DNA of 64,000 nt from the NCBI GenBank assembly GCA_965203985.1, contig CBDBDS010000005.1, positions 10,074 through 74,073 of the forward strand, read 5' to 3'. Origin of the DNA: Dehalococcoidia bacterium (lineage in GTDB: Bacteria > Chloroflexota > Dehalococcoidia > Lucifugimonadales > UBA3495). Shown here in pieces: positions 1 to 9,179 of this stretch; the first letter of the stretch is position 1; each line of letters opens with the position of its first letter. Made by a program: the position numbers and the translations under genes. The notes below the pieces were generated by a model. It had not been told where the DNA came from and did not search any database. It saw nothing but the letters and a program-made list of their open reading frames with translations.

Positions 1-1672
1 TCACCTCGTGGCTGCGGCCGATGCACGCGGCCTCGGCCACCTTCAGGTTGTCCACCAGCGCCGACTCCACCTCCATGGTGCTGATGCGGTGGGCCGACAC
101 GTTGATCACGTCGTCCACCCGGCCCAGCAGCCAGAAGTAGGACTCCTCGTCCAGCTTCGCGCCGTCGCTGGTGAAGTAGATGCCCTCGTAGTTGGACCAG
201 TACTGCTGCACGAACCGCTCGGGGTCGCCGTAGATGCCGCGCAGCATGCTGGGCCACGGCTTGCGGACCACCAGGTAGCCGCCGCCGCCCGGGCCGATCT
301 CGTTGCCCTGCTCGTCCAGGATCGCCGCGTCGATGCCGGGGAAGGGCTGCGTCGCCGAGCCGGGCTTCAGCGTCGTTATGCCGGGCAGGGCCGAGATCAT
401 CACCGCGCCGGTCTCGGTCTGCCACCAGGTGTCCACCACCGGGCAGCGGCCGCCGCCGATGTGCTGCCAGTACCAGACCCAGGCCTCCGGGTTGATCGGC
501 TCGCCCACCGAGCCCAGCAGGCGCAGCGACGACATGTCGTGCCGGTTGGGATACTCCTCACCCCAGCGCATGAAGGTGCGGATCGCCGTGGGCGCCGTGT
601 AGCAGATGGTGCAGGCGTACTTCTCGACGATGGCCCAGAACCGGTCCCGGTCGGGGTAGTCCGGCGACCCCTCGTACATCACCGTGGTCGCGCCGTTGGC
701 CAGCGGCCCATAGATGATGTAGCTATGGCCGGTGACCCAGCCGATGTCGGCGGTGCACCAGTAGACGTCATCTTCTTTGAGGTCGAAGATCCACTTGCTG
801 GTGGCATAGGTGCCGGTCATGTAGCCGCCGGTGGTGTGGACGATGCCCTTGGGCTTGCCGGTGGTGCCGCTGGTGTACAGCATGAACAGCATGTCTTCGC
901 TGTCCATCTGCTCCGGCTCGCAGGTCAACGGCTGGTCGGCCACCAGGTCGTGCCACCAGACATCGCGACCCTCCACCATTGGGACGTCATGGGCCGTGCG
1001 CTGCACCACCACCACCTTCTCCACCGGGGTGTCGCCCTCGATGGAGGCGTCGGCGTTGAGCTTCAGCGGGATGATGCCGCCGCGACGCCAGCCCCCGTCG
1101 GCCGTGATCATCACCTTGGACTGGGAGTCCTCGATGCGGTCCCGCAGCGACTCCGCGCTGAACCCGCCGAACACGATGCTGTGGGGCGCGCCGATGCGGG
1201 CGCAGGCCAACATGGCGATGGCCAGCTCCGGCACCATGGGCATGTACAGCGTGACCCGGTCGCCCTTCTGCACGCCGAGGCTCTTCAAGCCGTTGGCGAA
1301 CTTGCACACCTCACGGTAAAGGTCGCGGTAGGTGTAGACCTGCCAGTCGCCCGGCTCGCCCTCCCAGATGATGGCCGCCTTGTTCTTGCGCGGCCCCTCC
1401 AGGTGGCGGTCGATGCAGTTGTACGCGGCGTTGAGCTTGCCGCCGACGAACCACTTGGCGAAAGGCGCGTCCGACCAGTCCAGCACGGTGTCCCAGGACT
1501 TGAACCAGTCCAGTTCGCCGGCGAACCGCGCCCAGAACGCCTCGGGATCCCGTAGGGCCTCTTCGTACACGGAGGGGTCGGCGATGTTGGCGTTGGCGGC
1601 GAACTCGGCCGGCGGCGGATACGTCCGGTCTTCCTGCAGCAGGGCCTCAAAAGCGCCGGTATTCTGAGTCAT
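1..1672 (-). CDS. acs: acetyl-CoA synthetase (3' end runs off window)
   Basis: Minus-strand translation [21 protein letters not shown]...; contains [19 protein letters not shown] and DTWWQTETG motifs; GGAGGA RBS upstream. Absent from the ORF track because it is truncated. Confidence 0.95.
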
Positions 1673-1848
1673 GGTAGCAATCCTCCGGAACGGCAAAATA
1701 TTCAAAGCGAGTCAGGCAGATATTAGCATACTGTTTGCCTGTGCCGGCTGACCGAGATCGGAGCGGCCTCCTGGGCTCCCTGTGCTAGAATCCGCCTGCG
1801 ATAGCCCCGGCGATAGCCCCGGCGACACGATGCCAGGAAGGAAAAGAG

Positions 1849-2539
1849 ATGACAACGGTAGGCGCTGTCCCAATCTACCTGACCAGGCTCTTCACCCCCG
1901 AGGAGTGTGACGTCATGGTTCAGGCCGGCATCATCGCCGCAGACGAACGGGCCGACGCGCTCGCGGGTGTCCGCCGCTTCACGGTGGATGAGTATATGGC
2001 CATGGGCGAGGCCGGCATTCTGCACGAAGACGACCGTATCGAACTGATCGACGGGGAAATAATCATTATGCCGCCCATCGGGCGATCCTCACGAGGTCAG
2101 CACTGATTGGCTGACCAGACTATTCGTACCGCCTCTGATCGGTCGTGCAATCGTGCGGGTGCAGGGGGCAATCCGCCTGAACGACCGCAGCGCGCCGCAA
2201 CCTGACATTGCGGTGTTGCGTGAGCGTCCTTTGAGCGAGGTGGGGCCATATTTCCCGCCGGACGTACACCTGGTCATCGAGGTCGCCGACAGCACGCTCG
2301 CCTACGATCAGGGCGCGAAGCTGGCGCGGTACGCCGCCGCCGGTATCCCGGAGGTGTGGGTAGCCAACCTGCGGGCGCAGGAAGTCACGGCCTACGCCGA
2401 GCCCAACGGCGCGGAGTACGCCGCCGTCCGAACCTACCGGTCCGGCGATAGCATCAGCCCCCGGTCCTTCCCCGACGTGGTCCTGGCGGTGTCCGACTTC
2501 ATGCCGCCGGCCGGGCCGGACACCGCCGAAACGCTCTAG
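1849..2539 (+). pseudogene. Uma2 family (PD-(D/E)XK) endonuclease, frameshifted
   Basis: ORFs 1849-2106 (RRFTVDEY..RIELIDGEI..MPPIG) and 2153-2539 (PQPDIAV..LVIEVADSTL.YD..K...YA.AGIPEVW) join into one Uma2 if one G is removed near 2079-2082. Confidence 0.85.
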
Positions 2540-2599
2540 ACCTGCTCGTATCCGCTACGGCAGCGGCCCGTACCACCGGGCCAAGATCTCGTCCACCTT
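2451..2599 (+). repeat. ~149-bp direct repeat copy 1 (Uma2 3' end + lipoprotein 3' end)
   Basis: Aligns by eye with 3083-3231 at roughly 90% identity. Confidence 0.9.
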
Positions 2600-2669
2600 C
2601 GACGCGCCCGCCGCCGGCCGGAATACCCCTCCGCGCCGGTATAATGGAAAAAGCAGCCACACGTGAGGC

Positions 2670-3050
2670 TTGATGATGGGAACTTTCACCTACCCCATAG
2701 AAGTCATTTCGGCGGACGGCAACACCTCCGAGACAGTGGAGGCGACCGTTGACACCGGTTCCACTTACACTTGCCTGCCAGCAACCCTGCTGCAGAGGCT
2801 CGGGATAGCGCCCGTTGAGCGCATCAAATCGGAACTGGCCGACGGTAGTATTGTCGAAGATGCCGTCGGCGAAGTGCGTGTCAGGGTAGAGGGAGTCGAG
2901 CGATCTACCATCGTCATCTTCGCCGAAGAAGGCGCTCCCGCCCTGCTCGGCGCCTACACCCTCGAAGGCGCGCTGCTCGTCGTTGACCCGGTGCGGCAGC
3001 GGCTGGCGCCAACCCACGCGCTGCGGTATGGGAACTGGGTAATACAATGA
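2670..3050 (+). CDS. clan AA (retropepsin-like) aspartic protease
   Basis: VDTGSTYT catalytic motif and LLGAYTLE C-terminal motif; TATAAT at 2640-2645. Confidence 0.85.
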   Translation: MMMGTFTYPIEVISADGNTSETVEATVDTGSTYTCLPATLLQRLGIAPVERIKSELADGSIVEDAVGEVRVRVEGVERSTIVIFAEEGAPALLGAYTLEGALLVVDPVRQRLAPTHALRYGNWVIQ

Positions 3051-3082
3051 TCGAAACTATTCCTCTGGAAGTCTTCTCCGCC

Positions 3083-3231
3083 GCATCAGCCCCCGCACCT
3101 TCCCCGACCTGGTACCGGCGGTGTCCGACTTCATGCCACCGGCCGGGCCGGACAGCGCCGAAACGCTCTAGACCTGCTCGTGTCCCCTACGGCAGCGGCC
3201 CGTACCACCGGGCCACGATCTCGTCCACCTT
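3083..3231 (+). repeat. ~149-bp direct repeat copy 2
   Basis: Partner of 2451-2599; 632-bp offset. Confidence 0.9.
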
Positions 3232-4920
3232 GGCCGCCTGCGCTTCAGACACGTCGGCCTTGAAAGCCGCGACCAGGTGGCAGATGCCAAGTTCCGTACC
3301 CTCGCAGTCGTCGGAGTAGTCCTCCGCCTGCGATTTCAGGTACAGGCTGCGGAACCCCTGCCGGAAGGTTTCCTCGCCCAGACTGTGGTACAAGTCAAGA
3401 AATATCTGCTCGCCCAACGAGTAGTTGCAGTTGAACCCCCGCGTCCCCAATGCGTCGGGATCCATAGCCTCCAGTTCCCCTATCGTCTTCGCCGCCGCGC
3501 AGGGGTTGTTCGTCACTCCTATGGGCGTCTCGTCCCTAGCGTATTCAGAGATACTGCCGAGGATTTCCGCGGCGCCTTCGTCGATCCAATCTCGGTTGCC
3601 ACGCCAATAGTAGTGCGCCACTTCGTGGGCGATCACAAATGGCGTGTAGTCCCACCAATAACCGTTTTCCACATCAAACAGCAATTGCATCGCCATGTGT
3701 GTACCAAAGTTGGTCCCTCCCGATCCCGGGAACACCGCGTCGTCGTAGAGCAGGGCGATGTAGCCGGTGGGCATGCCCTCACCCATGAACTCCTCGACGG
3801 CGCGCACACTGTGTTCCAGGAAGTCCATGCTGGCCGTCGATTGATCACGTATACGCACGACGGACAACAATGTTTCTCCGGCCAGGGGCAATTGAATGGT
3901 ACGCTCTTCCACCTTGACGCCTGCGCCGCGCAACAGCGCATCACCCGATTCCGGACGATATGAATAGGTTCCGCCCAGCAGCGCAACCATTTTCGCCTCT
4001 TCGTCTGTGATACCGCCCTCCAGTCTCGTATCAGCCAGCACGTCCAAGAAGGTTTGCTCATCGTCACGCTCGAGCCTCTGCAAAGACATCACCGCCAGGG
4101 CATCCGTGCTGGTCACCGTTTCCAGGAACGGCATAGAGAGCGTTCGGATCGTCGCGTCAATGATGTTTTCCCGGACCAGATCGTCCTCGATCCAAACCAG
4201 CCAGTAGAGGTTTTGGGCCACCGTTGCTTCATGGGCGGTAATGCCATCGACAAACCAGGATTTTTGCAAGACCGCGGGAGCCAACTCGTCCCCGTAAAAC
4301 GCCATCCAGCGCGCCGAATCCAGCGCTGTTGCCTCTTCGCCGAATACGCCATCTTCAAGCCAGTCGAGCTCTATGGCAATTGAGAAGACCTCGGGGTACC
4401 AGACCGCAAGGTCCACAAGGTCCTGCGCGGGCACCTCCTCGCCTTCGTCCAATCCGTCTGCAATCCAGGAAAGGCTCCCAACCTGGCTCGCGAGCTTCCG
4501 TTCGTTGTCTGCCAGCCATTCGCCGTTTTTCAGTTCCCTGACCGCGCTCGGTATAGTTGGCGTGTTCGTTGGCCTGGGCGCGAACGTGGGTATCGGCGTG
4601 GGCGTTGACTGCGGCCGCGGTGTGTAAGTCGGCTTGGGTGTTGCGGCAGGCGCGGTCGTCGGCGTGGGTTGGGGCGTAAACGTAGGCACGGGGGTGTAGG
4701 TGGGCGGCGGCGGATACGTCGGTTCCCGCGTGTAAGTCGGCGTGGGCGGCACGTCGGTCGCCGTGAGAGTCGGCGTGGGTGTTGCGGTCACCGCCGCAGT
4801 CGGAGCGGCGGCTGGTGCAGCCGACGGAGGCTCGCCGGACGTGCACGCCGCCATCGCCGCGACCAGGCCGATGGCCAATGACGCCAGCAACCAGATCAAT
4901 GATCGCAGCCCGCTAGCCAT
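3187..4920 (-). CDS. Pro/Thr-rich lipoprotein with C-terminal gluzincin (M1-like) metallopeptidase domain
   Basis: GGAGG RBS before ATG 4920; hydrophobic signal ending AMAAC; PTxTP linker; HEVAH...WIDEG zinc motif. Confidence 0.75.
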   Translation of the reverse strand: MASGLRSLIWLLASLAIGLVAAMAACTSGEPPSAAPAAAPTAAVTATPTPTLTATDVPPTPTYTREPTYPPPPTYTPVPTFTPQPTPTTAPAATPKPTYTPRPQSTPTPIPTFAPRPTNTPTIPSAVRELKNGEWLADNERKLASQVGSLSWIADGLDEGEEVPAQDLVDLAVWYPEVFSIAIELDWLEDGVFGEEATALDSARWMAFYGDELAPAVLQKSWFVDGITAHEATVAQNLYWLVWIEDDLVRENIIDATIRTLSMPFLETVTSTDALAVMSLQRLERDDEQTFLDVLADTRLEGGITDEEAKMVALLGGTYSYRPESGDALLRGAGVKVEERTIQLPLAGETLLSVVRIRDQSTASMDFLEHSVRAVEEFMGEGMPTGYIALLYDDAVFPGSGGTNFGTHMAMQLLFDVENGYWWDYTPFVIAHEVAHYYWRGNRDWIDEGAAEILGSISEYARDETPIGVTNNPCAAAKTIGELEAMDPDALGTRGFNCNYSLGEQIFLDLYHSLGEETFRQGFRSLYLKSQAEDYSDDCEGTELGICHLVAAFKADVSEAQAAKVDEIVARWYGPLP

Positions 4921-4980
4921 GGATCGCCCTCCCAATTCAGGGCGGCATGATAGCACGGGGCCAATCAGCCCGCGGGACCA

Positions 4981-5033
4981 GTGCCGTATAACGCCGTCCG
5001 CCGGAGGTTCCGCCATGATCCTCATCCTGACCA
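4981..5033 (+). repeat. copy of amidohydrolase promoter/RBS/first codons (copy 1 of 3)
   Basis: gtgccgtataacgccgtccgccggaggttccgccATGatcctcatcctgacc matches 5692-5757 and 5903-5958. Confidence 0.85.
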
Positions 5034-5291: not shown

Positions 5292-5691
5292 TCCCCCTTG
5301 ATCTGTTCAGAACGTGCGTGCTATACTGGCTTTGCAGGCGAGATATTCACGTCCCGACCAGGTCTCAAGCGAAAACGGCCACCCAGATCAGCATCCAAGT
5401 CGCTAAACGGCGTCATGGGAGACTGTCTCTGATCATATTACTCAGGGTAGTCGCCCGGCCACCGGGCCCGCCACAGCCCGCCGTGCCGTGGGCACGGACA
5501 ATGAGAGCAAAAAACACAGCGCAACACCCCCGGCCGTGGGGCTGATAACCGCTCCGAGACCTGGTCGCCAATCACAAATCCACCGCCTGCGCCACCACAA
5601 TCCTGGAGGCAGTCCATCGCAGCATAAACCTCGCTTCTCCGGTCGGCAGCGGTCATCGCCTGTGCCCTGCCGACCCGCAACCCTCCGGCCC

Positions 5692-5757
5692 GTGCCGTAT
5701 AATGCCGTCCGCCGGAGGTTCCGCCATGTCCCTGATCCTGACCAACTCCAACCTCAT
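5692..5757 (+). repeat. copy of amidohydrolase promoter/RBS/first codons (copy 2 of 3)
   Basis: TATAAT + GGAGG + ATG tcc ctg atc ctg acc aac tcc aac ctc (MSLILTNSNL) versus real gene MTLILTNANL. Confidence 0.85.
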
Positions 5758-5923
5758 AAAATCCCGGCTGCGGTTTTGGCGGCGATCAAAGAGTCCATAA
5801 CGGCCGCCGCGTCGTAACGTATCCAACGCTGGGGCCGCAGATAACGGCTTACGTTTGCAGAGGTCATTTCCGGCTCATTTCAGTTTCATTTCGGCTTCGT
5901 TTCCGTCCGCCGGAGGTTCCGCC

Positions 5924-7123
5924 ATGACCCTCATCTTGACCAACGCCAACCTCATCGACTGTGTGCACGAGGGCGTGACGCCGGATGCCACCGTGGTAAT
6001 TGACGACGACCGCATCGTCGAGGTTGGCGCCGGCAGGGCCAGCGCATCCGGCGCAACGGTGATCGACCTGCGGGGTGCGTTCCTGATGCCCGGCCTGTGG
6101 GACGTGCACATCCATCCTGAGTATCCTGTCCCGCCCGGCACCACCGTGGCCCAGGAGACCGCCAATTTCGGCCGCGCCCTTTCCCTGGCGCTGACCGAGG
6201 GCGGCGTCACCGCCGTGCGCTGCGGCGGCGCGGCACACTTCATGGACGTGGCCTGGAAGCGCGCCTTCGACTCCGGCGACGTGGTCGGGCCTCGCGTTTT
6301 CGCCTCGGGCTACTTCCTGACCACCACCGGCGGCCACTTCCTCACCTCGGGACAGGCGAGGGAGTGCGACGGGCCCTACGGCTTCGTCCAGGCCATCCGC
6401 GAGCAGATCAAGAACGGCGTGGACCACATCAAGCTGAACCTCACCGGCGGCATCATGGGGCCGGACTGGGACCGCCACTGGCATTCATTCTTCCTGGAGG
6501 ATGAGCTAACCGCCGCCTTCGCCATCGCCCGCCAACGCGAGTTTCCGGTGATGGCCCACGCGGCCAACCCCGACGCCGTCAAGTCCGCCCTGTGCCTGGG
6601 CGCGCATACCGTCGAGCACGGCTACATCATGGACGAGGAGTGCATCGCCACCCTGGCCGAGTCGCCCACCTGGTACGTGCCCACCCTGGCCATCTCCCAC
6701 CTGACCGATGGGCAGGCCCAAAACGAATACGAAAGGCGCTGGCTGGCCCAGCGCAACATCGCCCAGGAGTTGCAGTGCCGCGCCGACGCTGCCTCCGACG
6801 AGCACGCCTACTGGTTCCGCCGCGCCCTGGACTCCGGGGCGAAGATGGCGCTGGGCTCGGACATCCGCCCCCTGCGCGAGGCCGCCCTGCTGGAGATGGG
6901 CCTGTGGGTTCGCGACGGCGCCACCACCTGGCAGACCCTGATCGCCGCCACCCGCAACGCCGCCGAGCTGTGTCTGGTCGGCGACCGGCTGGGTACCGTG
7001 GAGGCCGGCAAACTCGCCGACCTCATCGTAGTGGGCGCCAACCCGCTGGACGACATCAACAACCTGCGGCAGTTGCGGCTGGTGATTAAAGACGGGCGGG
7101 TAGTTTCGGATAAGCGGGGGTAA
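5924..7123 (+). CDS. metal-dependent amidohydrolase family protein
   Basis: IDL.G.FLMPGLWDVHIH, GVDHIK, AHA, EHG, G.VEAGKLADLIVV motifs; GGAGG RBS. Confidence 0.92.
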   Translation: MTLILTNANLIDCVHEGVTPDATVVIDDDRIVEVGAGRASASGATVIDLRGAFLMPGLWDVHIHPEYPVPPGTTVAQETANFGRALSLALTEGGVTAVRCGGAAHFMDVAWKRAFDSGDVVGPRVFASGYFLTTTGGHFLTSGQARECDGPYGFVQAIREQIKNGVDHIKLNLTGGIMGPDWDRHWHSFFLEDELTAAFAIARQREFPVMAHAANPDAVKSALCLGAHTVEHGYIMDEECIATLAESPTWYVPTLAISHLTDGQAQNEYERRWLAQRNIAQELQCRADAASDEHAYWFRRALDSGAKMALGSDIRPLREAALLEMGLWVRDGATTWQTLIAATRNAAELCLVGDRLGTVEAGKLADLIVVGANPLDDINNLRQLRLVIKDGRVVSDKRG

Positions 7124-7140
7124 AAACGAATATCCACCGA

Positions 7141-8301
7141 TTAGCCATCGGGGGATGCTACCTCAATTTGGTGACCGCTGGCTTCCCGGTATGCTTCATG
7201 TATAGCGGCCAAAATTGCATCCCAATCGTATTTCTTTTGGGATAATCGTCGGTAGCGAGCCTTTCGTGACGTATCTGCATCAATTATCTCATCAACTCGG
7301 TGACGTGAACCAGGAACCAAGATGTCCCCTGTAGGCCAAAACTTTATCTCACCCCCGCGCTCTTTACCGGCCGACAGAAGATTGTCGAACGATACCAAGT
7401 CCCACCCTTTCCCGGGTACCCGCAGTTCCAACCTGATGTGATCGTCTTTGCCGCTGATACGTGTAGTCAGGTCGGCGATTTTTAGTTGTTCCATCGCAAT
7501 TGCCGCATCATAGAGCCGCTGCAAGTCCGCGTGAAATCTTTCTGGCGAGCGTTTGATGCTTGCCTCGAAAGCTGCGGCACCCTGAACACGTTCCGATTTC
7601 CTCGAAGTCGCTGGCATTATTTCCTGTTCCCGCCGCCTAAGTCGAGTTTGGTACTCTGAAGCTTCAGGCAACGGGATTATCACGCTTGCTTCGATCAAGG
7701 TCTCATCATCGTTGCGAAGTGGCTGTAGCCGAACGCACTTGATTTCCTGGCCGGCTTCTCTTAGCCAGGAATCGTTGAGCCACATTACGCAAGTGGTAAG
7801 TTCTTTGCCAAAGTCCTCCGAAGCTAAAATAATTCGGGGTATACCGGTATGAATCACCGGGTCGTCTTGGTCATTGCTCGACAAATGTTCTCGGAGGCGG
7901 CTTTCGGCGTCGTCTGGCTCGTCGGTGTCCCATTCTTCATTGGCTCTCTTGTCTAGGTAGTCTTGGTAAGTGTCCACGGCTTGTTGGAATGTCATATTGG
8001 CGACCATTGCGGCATACCGGATGGCTTGCAAATCCATGTGGCCGCCGGTCTCCCCTCGTTTCAGCTCAACCACTACCAAGCGGCCTTCGGCGTCCAAGCC
8101 CAGTAAGTCGATTCGGCGGTTGGAATCTTCCCAGTTGCCGAATTCCTCAGCTATGATTAGCAGCCCGTCCTCCAGCACTTCTGGCCGGTCGCGCAGCATA
8201 CGTTGCAAGTCTGATCGTTCCAACACGCCCTGTTGGCCGAACGATGTTGGAGCAACTTCTATCAGTTCCTCCTTATTTCCTACCATTTTGTAGATAGCCA
8301 C
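7141..8301 (-). CDS. NucS/DUF91-like PD-(D/E)XK endonuclease with unassigned C-terminal domain
   Basis: RRIDLLGLDAEGRLVVVELKR..H..LQAIRYAAM motif; GTG start; lower GC than neighbours. Confidence 0.75.
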   Translation of the reverse strand: MAIYKMVGNKEELIEVAPTSFGQQGVLERSDLQRMLRDRPEVLEDGLLIIAEEFGNWEDSNRRIDLLGLDAEGRLVVVELKRGETGGHMDLQAIRYAAMVANMTFQQAVDTYQDYLDKRANEEWDTDEPDDAESRLREHLSSNDQDDPVIHTGIPRIILASEDFGKELTTCVMWLNDSWLREAGQEIKCVRLQPLRNDDETLIEASVIIPLPEASEYQTRLRRREQEIMPATSRKSERVQGAAAFEASIKRSPERFHADLQRLYDAAIAMEQLKIADLTTRISGKDDHIRLELRVPGKGWDLVSFDNLLSAGKERGGEIKFWPTGDILVPGSRHRVDEIIDADTSRKARYRRLSQKKYDWDAILAAIHEAYREASGHQIEVASPDG

Positions 8302-8316
8302 ACTAATCTCCCTGTG

Positions 8317-8865
8317 TCATCCTGTCGACTCTGGCGCCGCCCGTGTCGCCCGCCGCTCGGATCCATTCCTGGAAGGCTGCCAGGGTTCCACCAACGGCGT
8401 AACATCCACCGGCTCCAAGCGATAAACCTTGCCATACTGGGCGGCGGTTTCAAGGTCGCCGGCTTCCAGCGCGGCGCGGGCGGCGTCCATGCGGCGCAGG
8501 TCATGGGGACGGATTCCCTCCCCCCAAGGAGAACCGGGGCCGGAGAGTTCGGTTTGCATTTCTACGACGTAGCCGTTGACTTCCTCCATTCTGGTACGAT
8601 ATTGCGCGTAATGCGGCCTGACTTCCCCGGCAATCGCCTGAGGAACCAGACGATACAGGTCTCCGTATGACGCGGCGACGTTCAGATAACCACGGTCAAT
8701 AGCGTCGCGAAAGTCATCAATACGGTCTAAATCGAAGATATGCACCAGGATGCCTCGCGGATGGTCCGGTTCAATCAGAAGTTGTTCGAGCCGCACGGCA
8801 TAGCCCCGGTGGTAAATCATGCGGTCGATAACTTCTTTCTCGTGCTCGTGAATTTTCATCGTCAT
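8317..8865 (-). CDS. putative antitoxin partner of DUF4258, two tandem similar domains
   Basis: Start overlaps the DUF4258 stop (ATGA); two units ending AIDRGYLNVAASYGDLYRLVP and ALEAGDLETAAQYGKVYRLEP. Confidence 0.65.
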   Translation of the reverse strand: MTMKIHEHEKEVIDRMIYHRGYAVRLEQLLIEPDHPRGILVHIFDLDRIDDFRDAIDRGYLNVAASYGDLYRLVPQAIAGEVRPHYAQYRTRMEEVNGYVVEMQTELSGPGSPWGEGIRPHDLRRMDAARAALEAGDLETAAQYGKVYRLEPVDVTPLVEPWQPSRNGSERRATRAAPESTG

Positions 8866-9179
8866 CGCCTCGTCATCAAATCCGGTTCCCACCGCTCGTC
8901 AGGTCGGTACGCAGTAATCACCCAAGCCATGCCGGGGTCGGATTCCTTGATACCCCAAACTACGTGCAAAGGCTGGCCGGCTGCGTCATCTTGCAACGAT
9001 AGCAAACTTGGGCCGATTTCGCCCGTCGGATATTCTTCTACCACGACGGCGTCCATGATCCCACCAACCAGATCGGCATCGCTGAACCGGCGAGTCGCTC
9101 GGCGGAACTTGCCATGTCCGCTGGCGTCCCACCTCCCGGCGGCAACCAACGCTTGCACCTGTTCCATCAGGGAAGGCAT
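8862..9179 (-). CDS. DUF4258 family putative toxin (RelE-like)
   Basis: 105 aa; S.H...R, VEEYP..GPS.L.L..PLHVVWGI..VITAYRPD..W pattern. Confidence 0.8.
   Translation of the reverse strand: MPSLMEQVQALVAAGRWDASGHGKFRRATRRFSDADLVGGIMDAVVVEEYPTGEIGPSLLSLQDDAAGQPLHVVWGIKESDPGMAWVITAYRPDERWEPDLMTRR

Follow-up and report, generated by a model that had tools for sequence, protein, structure and literature searches.

The aspartic protease gene that lies between a Uma2-family gene and a convergent lipoprotein gene in this Dehalococcoidia genome is bracketed by two copies of a 155-nt segment, each of which contains the ends of both neighbours. We read this structure as a recombination scar and not as a mobile element, and our preferred explanation, to which we give about even confidence, is that two alleles of the locus were stacked by homology-facilitated illegitimate recombination (HFIR). 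Read in this way, the locus would give a base-resolved history of an accessory gene added between convergent genes, with no recombinase and with both neighbours undamaged, and it ties a small scar to large-scale genome structure, since related species have an inversion breakpoint at the same join. All coordinates without a prefix refer to the window, the 64,000-nt stretch of contig CBDBDS010000005.1 (assembly GCA_965203985.1) that was analysed.

Two copies of the same pair of gene ends flank the insert

The features of the locus are, in order:

2..1705, minus strand: acetyl-CoA synthetase-like gene 'acs', the left conserved flank, named from a sequence motif in the ORF alone
1849..2539, plus strand: Uma2-family (PD-(D/E)xK-like) gene, in ORFs 1849-2106 and 2153-2539 (Pfam PF05685)
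2451..2605, no strand: repeat copy A (J_A), with the real Uma2 3' end and stop, a spacer and a dead lipoprotein end
2555..2599, minus strand: dead lipoprotein end in copy A (last 14 codons and stop, KVDEILARWYGPLP followed by the stop), in ORF 2555-2689 (minus strand)
2600..2608, no strand: junction 1, lipoprotein end to crotonase end, illegitimate, within a (CGC)n tract
2603..2644, plus strand: dead 3' end of an enoyl-CoA hydratase (crotonase) gene, reading ..ARRRPEYPSAPV followed by the stop
2645..2669, plus strand: spacer with a GAGG ribosome-binding site
2670..3050, plus strand: retropepsin-like aspartic protease, 126 aa from TTG 2670
3047..3082, plus strand: right edge of the pasted piece, ~20 nt of a candidate gene start and ~15 nt of filler
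3083..3237, no strand: repeat copy B (J_B), with a dead Uma2 end, a spacer and the real lipoprotein end
3083-3171, frame still open: dead Uma2 end in copy B (last 29 codons)
3187..4920, minus strand: lipoprotein gene, the right conserved flank, with a lipobox (..AMAAC), a Pro/Thr-rich linker and a HEVAH zinc-protease-like motif

A repeat search identified 2451-2605 and 3083-3237 as a direct repeat of 155 nt, 92% identical (92.3%) and spaced by 632 nt. The segment is confined to these two sites in a search of the whole 4.4-Mb genome, which excludes a dispersed repeat or a chance match. When copies A and B are aligned, similarity sets in abruptly at 2451/3083 and ends at about 2602-2606/3234-3238. 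Each copy is made up of the 29 terminal codons of Uma2 and the 14 terminal codons of the lipoprotein, separated by 15 nt of spacer. In copy A, the genuine Uma2 stop (2537-2539) is followed directly by the 15-nt spacer, and the dead lipoprotein end differs from the live end at 3187-3231 by one mismatch in 45 nt; the live lipoprotein stop (3187-3189) lies within copy B. The copies differ at 12 of 155 positions, and these mismatches involve all four bases in both directions. J_A is 92.9% identical to the single copy at the empty site of CBDCQE010000003, and in a three-way comparison J_A, J_B and the CBDCQE copy are about equidistant (91-93% pairwise), which fits an origin of the two repeat copies in two lineages.

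A preliminary description of the locus had given duplicates of ~149 bp and ~90% identity, each with two convergent gene ends; they prove to be 155 nt long, 92% identical and unique in the genome, and the order it proposed (Uma2, lipoprotein-end copy, protease, Uma2-end copy, lipoprotein) is borne out by the alignment and the ORFs. Its claim that both flanking genes keep intact ends holds for the lipoprotein and for the Uma2 end, which is real, but the Uma2 gene itself is interrupted by a 1-nt frameshift near 2085-2090. It had also taken the DNA between the copies to be an insertion relative to an empty allele, a view that relatives sharing the arrangement but lacking an empty allele would have contradicted. 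Empty alleles are common: a Uma2/lipoprotein site without cargo is present in at least nine related SAR202/Dehalococcoidia species.

The frameshift separates two Uma2 ORFs, of which the C-terminal one matches PF05685 with 83 bits (E=2e-23) and the N-terminal one with 20 bits, under the cut-off of 27. By comparison with G019, removing one G of GGGC at ~2085-2088 restores the frame; the interruption may mark a pseudogene or reflect a sequencing error in a homopolymer. Relatives have one to three tandem Uma2 copies at the locus. A further pair of matches to the Uma2 end, at C13:971515 / 972109 (594 nt apart), was considered as a parallel cassette and rejected, being two tandem Uma2 paralogues. 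The lipoprotein, which has no Pfam match, is directly convergent with Uma2 in at least nine species, and its affinities to relatives vary along its length, making it a mosaic. On the other side, acs is 86-96% identical across seven relatives and served as the synteny anchor.

The repeat itself folds into a single 11-bp stem (2485-2495 with 2517-2527), no better than expected (z = -1.9), and no terminator was found between the convergent Uma2 and lipoprotein genes; a strong hairpin or terminator acting as a break hotspot was rejected on these grounds. As a caution for annotation, gene-end repeats of this kind should not be taken for att sites, and the small ORFs that they contain (2555-2689 and 3047-3319) are to be read as relics.

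The insert is cut out of a chromosomal crotonase-protease locus

At its left edge the insert carries the final 12-15 codons of a crotonase gene; the retropepsin-like protease comes next. The crotonase relic matches the 3' end of the genome's own crotonase at C8:21633-20773 (..RERRRPEYPSAAAD followed by the stop; ECH_1 E=1.6e-51), as well as the 3' ends of crotonase genes upstream of the protease in relatives. Crotonase followed by protease is a conserved neighbour pair in at least 14 relatives, and in G004, 67 kb separate this home locus from the Uma2/lipoprotein junction, the two being oppositely oriented. The preliminary description had seen a self-contained protease cassette here; it is instead a cut-out of the crotonase-protease operon that carries a dead crotonase end.

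The spacer upstream of the protease (2645-2669) is of a long type found otherwise only at the G024 home locus and in the Uma2-side copies of G009 and G005. A TATAAT-like motif at 2640-2645 overlaps the stop codon of the crotonase relic, and a consensus scan called no sigma-70 promoter at the spacer. Translation is more likely to begin at ATG 2673 or 2676 than at TTG 2670. The protease matches PF13650 with 35.0 bits (cut-off 24.3) and PF13975 with 34.2 bits (cut-off 28.2), its translation contains a predicted catalytic DTGS motif (in VDTGSTYTC) that is conserved across orthologues, and it is the sole intact member of its orthologue group in the genome. At the right edge, the protease stop overlaps a start as ATGA, which is the home arrangement, and the first ~20 nt of 3047-3082 possibly represent the beginning (M..T[IV]P) of the gene downstream of the home protease; the edge has weak similarity to the genome's own C8:17914 and to G024. 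Some 15 nt of filler follow, up to junction 2 at 3082/3083.

The genome's own home copy of the protease is a 3' remnant (C8:17929-18130), ~72% identical to the inserted gene, in an allele with the order crotonase, 2.56-kb SBP56 segment, protease remnant. G014, the nearest relative when judged by acs, has the same home allele (94%). In this line the home locus thus probably has no intact protease, and the inserted copy was probably imported. In a protease tree, the inserted copy is sister to the Uma2-side copy of G009 (86.4% nucleotide identity, support 0.995); it is 72-80% identical to home copies and not sister to any of them.

The left junction is an inversion breakpoint in relatives

Two relatives, G009 and G005, carry the same join of lipoprotein end to crotonase end as junction 1, within 9 nt and in a CGC repeat. 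A degenerate pattern for junction 1 matched only these two among 185,579 species genomes, a scan in which records of this genome itself were perhaps not covered. In both relatives the join is one end of a 68-75 kb inversion and the second repeat is absent: the protease continues into the downstream flank of the home locus, and at a distance of 68-75 kb another protease copy, inverted, adjoins the intact crotonase gene. Their lipoprotein relic is only ~68% identical (manual count on the alignment). At their second junction, the protease plus 40 nt is joined to the upstream region of a VOC-family gene, unlike junction 2. In G005, the Uma2-side protease is a mosaic, with a 5' part of the inserted type and a 3' part of the home type.

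Junction 2 has a different distribution. The sequence before 3083 shares nothing with the sequence before 2451, which makes junction 2 illegitimate, and the junction is absent from all relatives searched. An exact 32-mer across it had no match in metagenome contigs, nor had the protease protein in the contig collection, in scans that may omit this genome's own records. Since the left junction is shared with inversion breakpoints that lack a second repeat, the two repeat ends probably derive from separate events and not, as had been proposed, from a single integration.

A third relative, G014, has an independent 74-kb inversion between the same two ~300-bp zones. At its junctions, 67 codons of the Uma2 end and 45 codons of the crotonase end are duplicated in inverted orientation, and there are eight protease codons and fillers of 12 and 47 nt. 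By sliding identity along our locus, affinity is to G014 in the left flank, to the standard allele in J_A, to G009 in the insert and to a mosaic of G004, G019 and G013 in the right flank; such changing affinities indicate frequent exchange between lineages.

Stacking of two alleles as the preferred explanation

We propose two steps. The first would be old and would belong to a related lineage: there, the final ~15 lipoprotein codons would have been fused to the final 12-15 codons of the crotonase gene by an illegitimate join of the inversion type. This crotonase gene, with its downstream protease, would have lain ~67 kb away in opposite orientation. The product, Uma2 / lipoprotein-end relic / crotonase-end relic / protease and so on, would be what survives in G009 and G005. 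In the second step, in the line of the present genome, a short piece of this allele, beginning at Uma2 codon -29 and reaching ~20 nt beyond the protease stop, would have recombined with a resident chromosome carrying the standard allele. One exchange would be homologous, inside the ~155-nt segment common to both alleles; the other would be illegitimate, joining the end of the piece to resident Uma2 codon -29 through ~15 nt of filler. RecA-type exchange and Ku-independent end joining could supply the two activities. Topologically, this step would equal a Campbell integration of a circularised 632-bp piece. Both alleles would end up stacked, with Uma2 and the lipoprotein keeping live ends and each repeat copy holding one dead end, and the genome would regain an intact protease after loss of the home copy.

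Several features of the locus resemble HFIR, a process of naturally transformable bacteria whose known outcomes are mostly insertion-deletions and which is reportedly known from Acinetobacter, Streptococcus pneumoniae and Pseudomonas stutzeri. As in HFIR, one homologous anchor is combined with one illegitimate join (with microhomology or none), no recombinase is involved and the donor would be a diverged relative. J_A lies in sequence common to both alleles, and junction 2 joins unrelated sequences with ~15 nt of filler, the pair of junctions expected of HFIR. Unlike in HFIR, the illegitimate join lies upstream of the anchor end, so that the 155-nt anchor is duplicated and both flanking genes are whole; the anchor is also very short. 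To our knowledge, HFIR that ends in duplication rather than deletion is not a commonly reported outcome. Stacking also assumes that this uncultured lineage may be naturally competent.

The protease tree, the sliding identity and the comparison of J copies lean towards a donor lineage other than the recipient's, in agreement with the earlier suggestion that DNA from a relative entered through gene-end homology, which the anatomy fits. Some observations count against stacking. The required donor allele, in which the protease is followed by the 249-aa gene type, is absent from the sampled genomes. The lipoprotein relic in J_A is nearly undecayed (1/45 mismatch) although that of G009 and G005 is at ~68%, which requires the assumption either that J_A is mostly resident-derived or that it was refreshed by gene conversion from J_B. 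Junction 1 is offset by 9 nt from that of G009 and G005, leaving room for an independent origin, and breakpoint reuse does happen here, as G014 demonstrates.

Comparison with known systems

Minimal mobile elements (MMEs) were described in Neisseria (Saunders & Snyder 2002; Snyder et al. 2007, via PMC3787668). As in MMEs, what lies between the same conserved flanking genes varies among close relatives, with the site filled here and empty in at least nine species, and mobility genes are lacking; MME exchange is ascribed to homologous recombination in the flanks. As portrayed there, such exchange swaps contents without duplicating flank ends, whereas here flank replacement is not clean: 155 nt of both flank ends are duplicated, and two alleles are stacked with a scar of two gene ends. 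One of the 'alleles', moreover, is an inversion breakpoint, again unlike the MMEs of that account.

Phages and integrative elements integrate at gene 3' ends with duplication of att. The present locus is similar in that the insert lies between direct repeats containing a gene 3' end, with a functional end retained by the target gene and a dead one left displaced. It differs in having no integrase and no element, in a repeat that spans two convergent gene ends, and in a cargo that is a chromosomal operon fragment.

Staggered-break inversions with inverted duplications and breakpoint reuse are known from Drosophila, where non-homologous end joining (NHEJ) was invoked (Ranz et al. 2007, PMC1885836). 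G014 corresponds to these closely, with an inverted segment, inverted gene-end duplicates at both junctions, and fillers, and the use of the same breakpoint zones by G009/G005 and G014 parallels the breakpoint reuse. Drosophila, however, is a eukaryote, and in the present genome no Ku was found and the repeats are direct, with both flanks contiguous on one contig. At most, this locus is a derived state of a staggered-break inversion. Were the pattern general, Drosophila-type inversions with duplicated gene ends would gain a bacterial counterpart; as far as we know, such inversions have so far come mainly from Drosophila.

Weighing alternative explanations

If a duplicative (staggered-break) inversion were later undone by a second inversion in the same genome, exactly the observed product would result. 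Breaks staggered by 155 nt at Uma2/lipoprotein and by ~480 nt at crotonase-end/protease would invert a ~64-kb segment and duplicate the breakpoints in inverted orientation, and recombination between the inverted proteases would then flip the segment back, leaving Uma2 / J / protease / J / lipoprotein. G014 carries such an inversion between the same two zones, G009 and G005 have inverted protease copies at both segment ends, and among Drosophila inversions such a model is established, breakpoint reuse included (PMC1885836). We nevertheless regard it as unlikely. The inserted protease is only ~72% identical to the genome's own home remnant, in a home allele shared with G014, so that an intact home copy to be duplicated was probably absent; the second junction of G009 and G005 differs from junction 2; and the genome has no Ku and no other staggered-inversion signature among its unique inverted repeats, the pair C2:620602/779376 being rejected as an ordinary long inverted repeat. 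Quite unlikely, too, is a one-step templated insertion with target duplication, in which break repair copies or captures ~480 nt and resumes 155 nt upstream, making both junctions at once, with the arrangement of G009 and G005 arising later by recombination between protease copies. Such repair would explain why both edges of the insert cut neighbouring genes at arbitrary points and why junction 2 has filler, as in microhomology-mediated repair; it also suits the existence of at least 12 other loci with 84-250-nt gene-end repeats and 0.5-1.6 kb cargo, and the protease mosaic of G005 is as expected from a crossover inside the protease gene. It is opposed by the fact that every relative with junction 1 is without junction 2, that relatives share only the left junction at the two other loci tested, that a later deletion in G009 and G005 would have to start exactly at the edge of the insert, and that J_A and J_B are no nearer each other than to another species' single copy.

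An earlier suggestion was Campbell-type integration of a small circle. The part that stands is topological: a 632-bp circularised fragment with one repeat copy gives the same product by a single crossover, and the 155-nt direct repeats could in turn excise by homologous recombination and regenerate the empty allele. A free, recurrently excising circle that moves as a unit is improbable, because the cargo lacks replication, transfer and recombination functions and carries dead chromosomal gene pieces, the arrangement is found in this genome only, and the 8% divergence of the repeats lowers the recombination rate. An assembly chimera of two co-occurring strain haplotypes has in its favour that the genome is a metagenome-assembled genome of 15 contigs with 4.85% estimated contamination, that both necessary alleles are present in the genus and that the possible Uma2 homopolymer error hints at an imperfect consensus. 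We consider it very improbable, since junction 2 joins sequences without a common k-mer (...TCTTCTCCGCC / GCATCAGCC.. against ..GGCGATA / GCATCAGCC..) and so cannot be made by graph mis-traversal, the 12/155 differences show the repeat to be neither collapsed nor expanded, and scars like this one are found at many loci, including some in relatives whose genomes are single contigs. Barely credible is the action in trans of a transposase, integrase, integron or retroelement, with a long target duplication, an att-like duplication or a TR/VR pair; direct repeats with a gene 3' end do flank the cargo, as at integrase att sites, and the cargo is a single gene of cassette size. Yet the cargo edges have no terminal inverted repeats, and a Pfam scan of ORFs between window positions -7365 and 9893 found neither recombinase nor reverse transcriptase within ~10 kb on either side, as the preliminary description had said of recombinases; the scan covered the ORFs of this span that passed a length and codon-GC filter, all but a few short or atypical ones. 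The mismatches are not adenine-specific, the fold (z = -1.9) is not attC-like, and the repeat is host sequence with an empty allele around a cargo that bears a crotonase relic.

An IS or transposon, defined by a transposase, terminal inverted repeats and a short (2-15 bp) target duplication, is contradicted by the absence of a transposase in the cargo and of inverted repeats at its edges and by a duplication of 155 nt, too long for such a target site, as had been noted before. An integrase-mediated element was rejected, with no tyrosine or serine recombinase in or near the insert. Against an integron cassette, the repeat is coding sequence of the flanking genes and no integrase is nearby, and a diversity-generating retroelement was rejected on the mismatch pattern and the lack of a reverse transcriptase within ~10 kb. 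A search of the genome for Ku (PF02735) found no gene, with a positive Bacillus control, which weakens classical NHEJ fragment capture; alternative end joining may still have acted. The Pfam scan of the neighbourhood also found an MmeI-like enzyme, HEPN_Swt1, DUF4258, a NucS_C-like domain and a cyclase.

Gene-end repeats at other loci

At least 12 further loci in the genome have gene-end repeats of 84-250 nt around 0.5-1.6 kb of cargo, a count that excludes dispersed MITE-like repeats (4-38 further copies), which make up several of 28 local direct repeats. Intragenomic capture as a general source of these cargoes was rejected, most being unique and having a GC content of 0.50-0.59 against 0.63 for the genome. 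A broader reading, which we hold to be rather unlikely, is that SAR202-type Dehalococcoidia systematically paste gene-sized DNA at gene ends without a recombinase, duplicating 80-250 nt of flank; paired nicks, D-loop cleavage or template switching at convergent gene ends may be the cause. If true, the same process would make and reverse the 65-75 kb inversions, at least 12 accessory loci (toxin-antitoxin, Uma2, HEPN, protease) and the recurrent inversion would come down to one mechanism, and this would be a main route by which these genomes gain small defence-type genes. As for stacking by HFIR, if the pattern is general, gene-end repeats could be used to trace, by sequence search, illegitimate and homology-anchored gains of genes in uncultured bacteria. 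Two of the other repeat-flanked loci show the same asymmetry as the protease locus: the junction of gene and cargo is common to relatives, and at both loci the relatives' homology extends up to, or stops slightly short of, the point where the second repeat copy begins.

A repeat of two gene ends brackets the protease gene

Two copies of a 155-nt direct repeat, J_A on the left and J_B on the right, flank the protease cargo (window 2451-2605 and 3083-3237; 92% identity, 632 nt spacing in a repeat search of the window), and the segment has only these 2 copies in the 4.4-Mb, 15-contig genome. Each copy carries the ends of both a Uma2 gene and a lipoprotein gene, which confirms the diverged duplicates of two convergent gene ends in the preliminary description. 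In pairwise alignment, similarity has a sharp onset at 2451/3083 and runs to about 2602-2606.

Features of the repeat copies (window coordinates)
2451-2605, J_A: real Uma2 end (last 29 codons, stop 2537-2539), 15-nt spacer and dead lipoprotein end
2555-2599, strand opposite Uma2: dead lipoprotein end in J_A, last 14 codons plus stop
3083-3237, J_B: dead, still open Uma2 end (3083-3171) and real lipoprotein end (stop 3187-3189)

Uma2 was assigned by a Pfam match (PF05685); the gene is split by a 1-nt (+1) frameshift near 2085-2090 (window 2076-2110; GGGC versus GGC in relatives) into ORFs 1849-2106 and 2153-2539; it is a pseudogene, or else the consensus has a homopolymer error. The cargo gene encodes a retropepsin-like protease (Pfam matches PF13650 and PF13975, and a DTGS motif in translation). 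The lipoprotein gene (3187-4920, minus strand) encodes a lipobox, a Pro/Thr-rich linker and an HEVAHYYW (HEVAH) motif, and matched no Pfam family; the linker and motif make a secreted zinc protease a possible identity for its product. The closest relatives differ between its N- and C-terminal parts (G004/G019, 86-96%, versus G013, 83-90%). Defence- and toxin-type genes are abundant around the locus (C5:2708-9201, that is, window -7365 to -872, and window 7141-9179), including an MmeI-like restriction-modification enzyme (921 aa), an HEPN_Swt1-TPR protein, an HEPN-like pair, a gene with a NucS_C-like domain and a DUF4258 toxin-like gene.

The cargo is cut from a chromosomal operon

The protease has a home locus, conserved in at least 14 species of the genus, between an enoyl-CoA hydratase ('crotonase') gene, directly upstream and in most of them 1 nt away, and a conserved flank on its downstream side; the home flanks in the studied genome lie at C8:20786 onward and C8:15120 downward. 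Window 2603-2644 reads ..ARRRPEYPSAPV* and is a dead crotonase 3′ end, the genome's own crotonase copy (ECH_1 match, E = 1.6e-51) having the terminus ..RERRRPEYPSAAAD*. At the other edge, the protease stop lies in an overlapping ATGA, the next ~6 codons are weakly similar to the gene downstream of the protease at the home locus (own C8:17914 and G024), and ~15 nt of filler separate these from J_B. On this evidence, the cargo is a piece of ~480 nt cut from a chromosomal operon, each edge falling within a neighbouring gene.

The home locus of G004 lies 67 kb from its Uma2/lipoprotein junction, in opposite orientation; in the studied genome, home locus and cassette are on separate contigs (C8 and C5). 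The home protease there is a 3′ remnant only (C8:17929-18130) adjoining a 2.56-kb segment (SBP56 gene and membrane-protein gene), and the cassette copy is thus the genome's sole intact member of its orthologue group. The home locus (C8:15136-20786) is itself a variable hotspot, containing the SBP56 selenium-binding-protein and membrane-protein genes (C8:18374-20666, 94% with G014), the protease remnant, a 249-aa gene without assigned family and a PIN-like pair; G004 has the protease alone there.

Relatives carry the empty site

The relatives compared are metagenome-assembled genomes labelled SAR202 cluster, Dehalococcoidia or Chloroflexota, which share the order acs(-) (acetyl-CoA synthetase-like), Uma2 (1-3 tandem copies), lipoprotein(-), ..., amidohydrolase. 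The preliminary description had proposed searching close relatives for empty alleles, and these were found: a single 155-nt segment with Uma2 and lipoprotein directly convergent occurs in G004, G019, G013 and G012, and the same layout in five further species (OY760687, OX638345, CBDCQE01, CBDCPM01/CBDCPE01 and JAJEIA01). The empty allele is thus the usual one and presumably ancestral. The locus has another gene-end duplicate in one of these other species, OX638345.1, where a second copy of the lipoprotein's last ~210 nt (L056:1076-1286; 86% identical, same orientation) lies ~1.2 kb upstream of the true 3′ end.

An inversion junction shared with two relatives

In G009 and G005 the order is Uma2 (two to three copies), lipoprotein-end relic, crotonase-end relic, protease. 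Junction 1, the join of lipoprotein and crotonase ends, lies in the window within 2600-2608, its exact base being ambiguous, and agrees with theirs to within 9 nt, an offset that slippage in a CGC-CGC-CGC tract could explain. Searched with a degenerate pattern of the fusion, 185,579 species representatives gave matches in G009 and G005 only; the set may not include the studied genome. In both relatives the protease runs on into the home downstream flank, in G009 by way of a GmrSD gene, and a second, inverted protease copy stands beside an intact crotonase gene 68 kb (G009) or 75 kb (G005) away; the join thus marks, in these two genomes, an endpoint of an inversion that spans the segment in between. 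Neither genome has a lipoprotein gene or a second repeat copy, and the lipoprotein relic in each has decayed strongly (about 68% identity by hand count on the alignment).

The closest relative by acs (G014, 95.9%) has the same segment inverted on a single contig, over 74 kb, with junctions unlike those of G009/G005.

Junctions of the G014 inversion (L035:7450-8000 and L036:5600-6150; G014:C1 at about 2.0077 Mb and 2.0817 Mb)
Junction a: full crotonase, spacer, protease codons 1-8, 12-nt filler, Uma2 from codon -67, lipoprotein
Junction b: three Uma2 copies, spacer to lipoprotein stop, 47-nt filler, 45-codon crotonase relic, SBP56 segment (94% with own C8), downstream flank

The inverted duplicates comprise the Uma2 end (67 codons) and crotonase end (45 codons), plus eight protease codons. 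Staggered-break inversions with inverted duplications and breakpoint reuse are described in Drosophila (PMC1885836); with inverted duplicates at both junctions and reused breakpoints, G014 bears this signature and, judged from its junction sequences, is an independent, bacterial example.

Origin of the cassette allele

In the protease tree, the cassette copy is sister to the Uma2-side copy of G009 (86.4% nucleotide identity, support 0.995), and its identity to the home copies compared is 72-80% throughout; the Uma2-side protease of G005 is a cassette/home mosaic. The long spacer type 5′ of the cassette protease occurs otherwise only at the G024 home locus and at the Uma2-side copies of G009/G005. 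Sliding identity divides the locus into four zones: acs and Uma2, G014-like (90-98%) to about 2520; J_A, closest to the standard allele (G004 89% versus G009 82%); the cassette, G009-like (80-92%); and the lipoprotein, a mosaic of G004/G019/G013-like tracts. Between J_A, J_B and the single CBDCQE01 copy, the distances are about equal (92.3, 92.9 and 91.0% identity).

On these comparisons, junction 1, at the repeat's right end, is shared and appears old; junction 2, at the left end of J_B (the cargo/J_B join at 3082/3083), is illegitimate and unique to this genome. The simplest history, to which we give about even credence, is allele stacking by recombination of the homology-facilitated illegitimate (HFIR) type. 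A donor piece of a relative's inversion-junction allele, running from Uma2 codon -29 to ~20 nt beyond the protease, would have recombined with the resident standard allele, one exchange being homologous within the shared ~155 nt and the other illegitimate, rejoining at Uma2 codon -29. Allele stacking would account for the two relics, for the junction 2 filler and for both flanking genes having kept intact ends, as well as for the protease's foreign affinity and the equidistance of both repeat copies from another species' single copy. It requires the assumption that J_A is mostly resident-derived or was refreshed by gene conversion, because the lipoprotein relic would otherwise be expected to be more decayed. 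No Ku gene was found in the genome.

Integration of a circularised 632-bp piece by a Campbell-type event, as proposed in the preliminary description, would give a product topologically the same as that of allele stacking; the gene-end homology and relative's DNA it invoked fit, but a mobile protease cassette does not, the cargo being an operon cut-out. Duplicative inversion followed by re-inversion within one genome is unlikely, and one-step templated insertion with target duplication slightly more so. That a free circle excises recurrently seems improbable. An assembly chimera is more doubtful still, because no sequence is common across the junction 2 join; that join had no match in metagenome contigs or a contig collection, either of which may lack this genome. 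Least credible is enzyme-mediated insertion; as previously described, no recombinase lies nearby, in this case among ORFs scanned with Pfam from ~7.4 kb upstream to window 9893. The novelty lies in connecting a small scar of gene ends to a 68-75 kb inversion that recurs, with gene ends duplicated, in SAR202-type Dehalococcoidia.

Similar loci elsewhere in the genome

A genome-wide look for gene-end repeats around cargo was also suggested earlier. Self-BLAST (direct repeats of 80-600 nt, ≥86% identity, <3 kb apart) returned 28 local direct repeats, 17 of them without a further copy elsewhere. With tandem paralogue arrays removed, at least 12 loci have neighbour-gene ends around a cargo of 0.5-1.6 kb. 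Most cargoes fall below the genome's GC; they comprise a Uma2 gene, a PaREP1/HEPN gene, a PIN-Phd pair, a protease paralogue and small low-GC ORFs without known function. The twelve loci listed below, with 0.5-1.9 kb of cargo, have unique repeats 84-247 nt long and 88-98% identical, and most of those inspected are neighbouring gene ends.

Repeat-flanked loci in the studied genome
C13: 1393204-1394250; 973815-974785; 419463-420380; 619572-620732; 637498-638873; 280236-282013
C2: 35816-36930; 194331-195542; 428384-429448
C8: 137664-138748
C3: 401364-402010
C14: 10908-13239

At the two loci compared with relatives (C13:1393204 and C2:35816), the gene/cargo junction is common to relatives including G014, homology ends at or just before the second repeat copy, and in no relative does the relic adjoin its downstream DNA; this asymmetry is the same as at the protease locus.

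The genome also holds a dispersed ~170-nt MITE-like repeat (>70 copies, for example, C13:620387-620553) and a short palindromic unit (..GTCATTCCGGCGAAAGCCGGAATCCAG..) inserted in intergenic spacers, which lies 5′ of the protease in G013, G016, G005 and G014; copies of these two account for several of the non-unique local repeats. Near the protease locus, the amidohydrolase promoter, ribosome-binding site and first codons are present in triplicate (window 4978-5033, 5689-5744 and 5887-5942), copies two and three being 91% and 73% identical to the first, with a single copy in G019, G004 and G013; the triplicate is a gene-end scar of the same type, in this case at a 5′ end.
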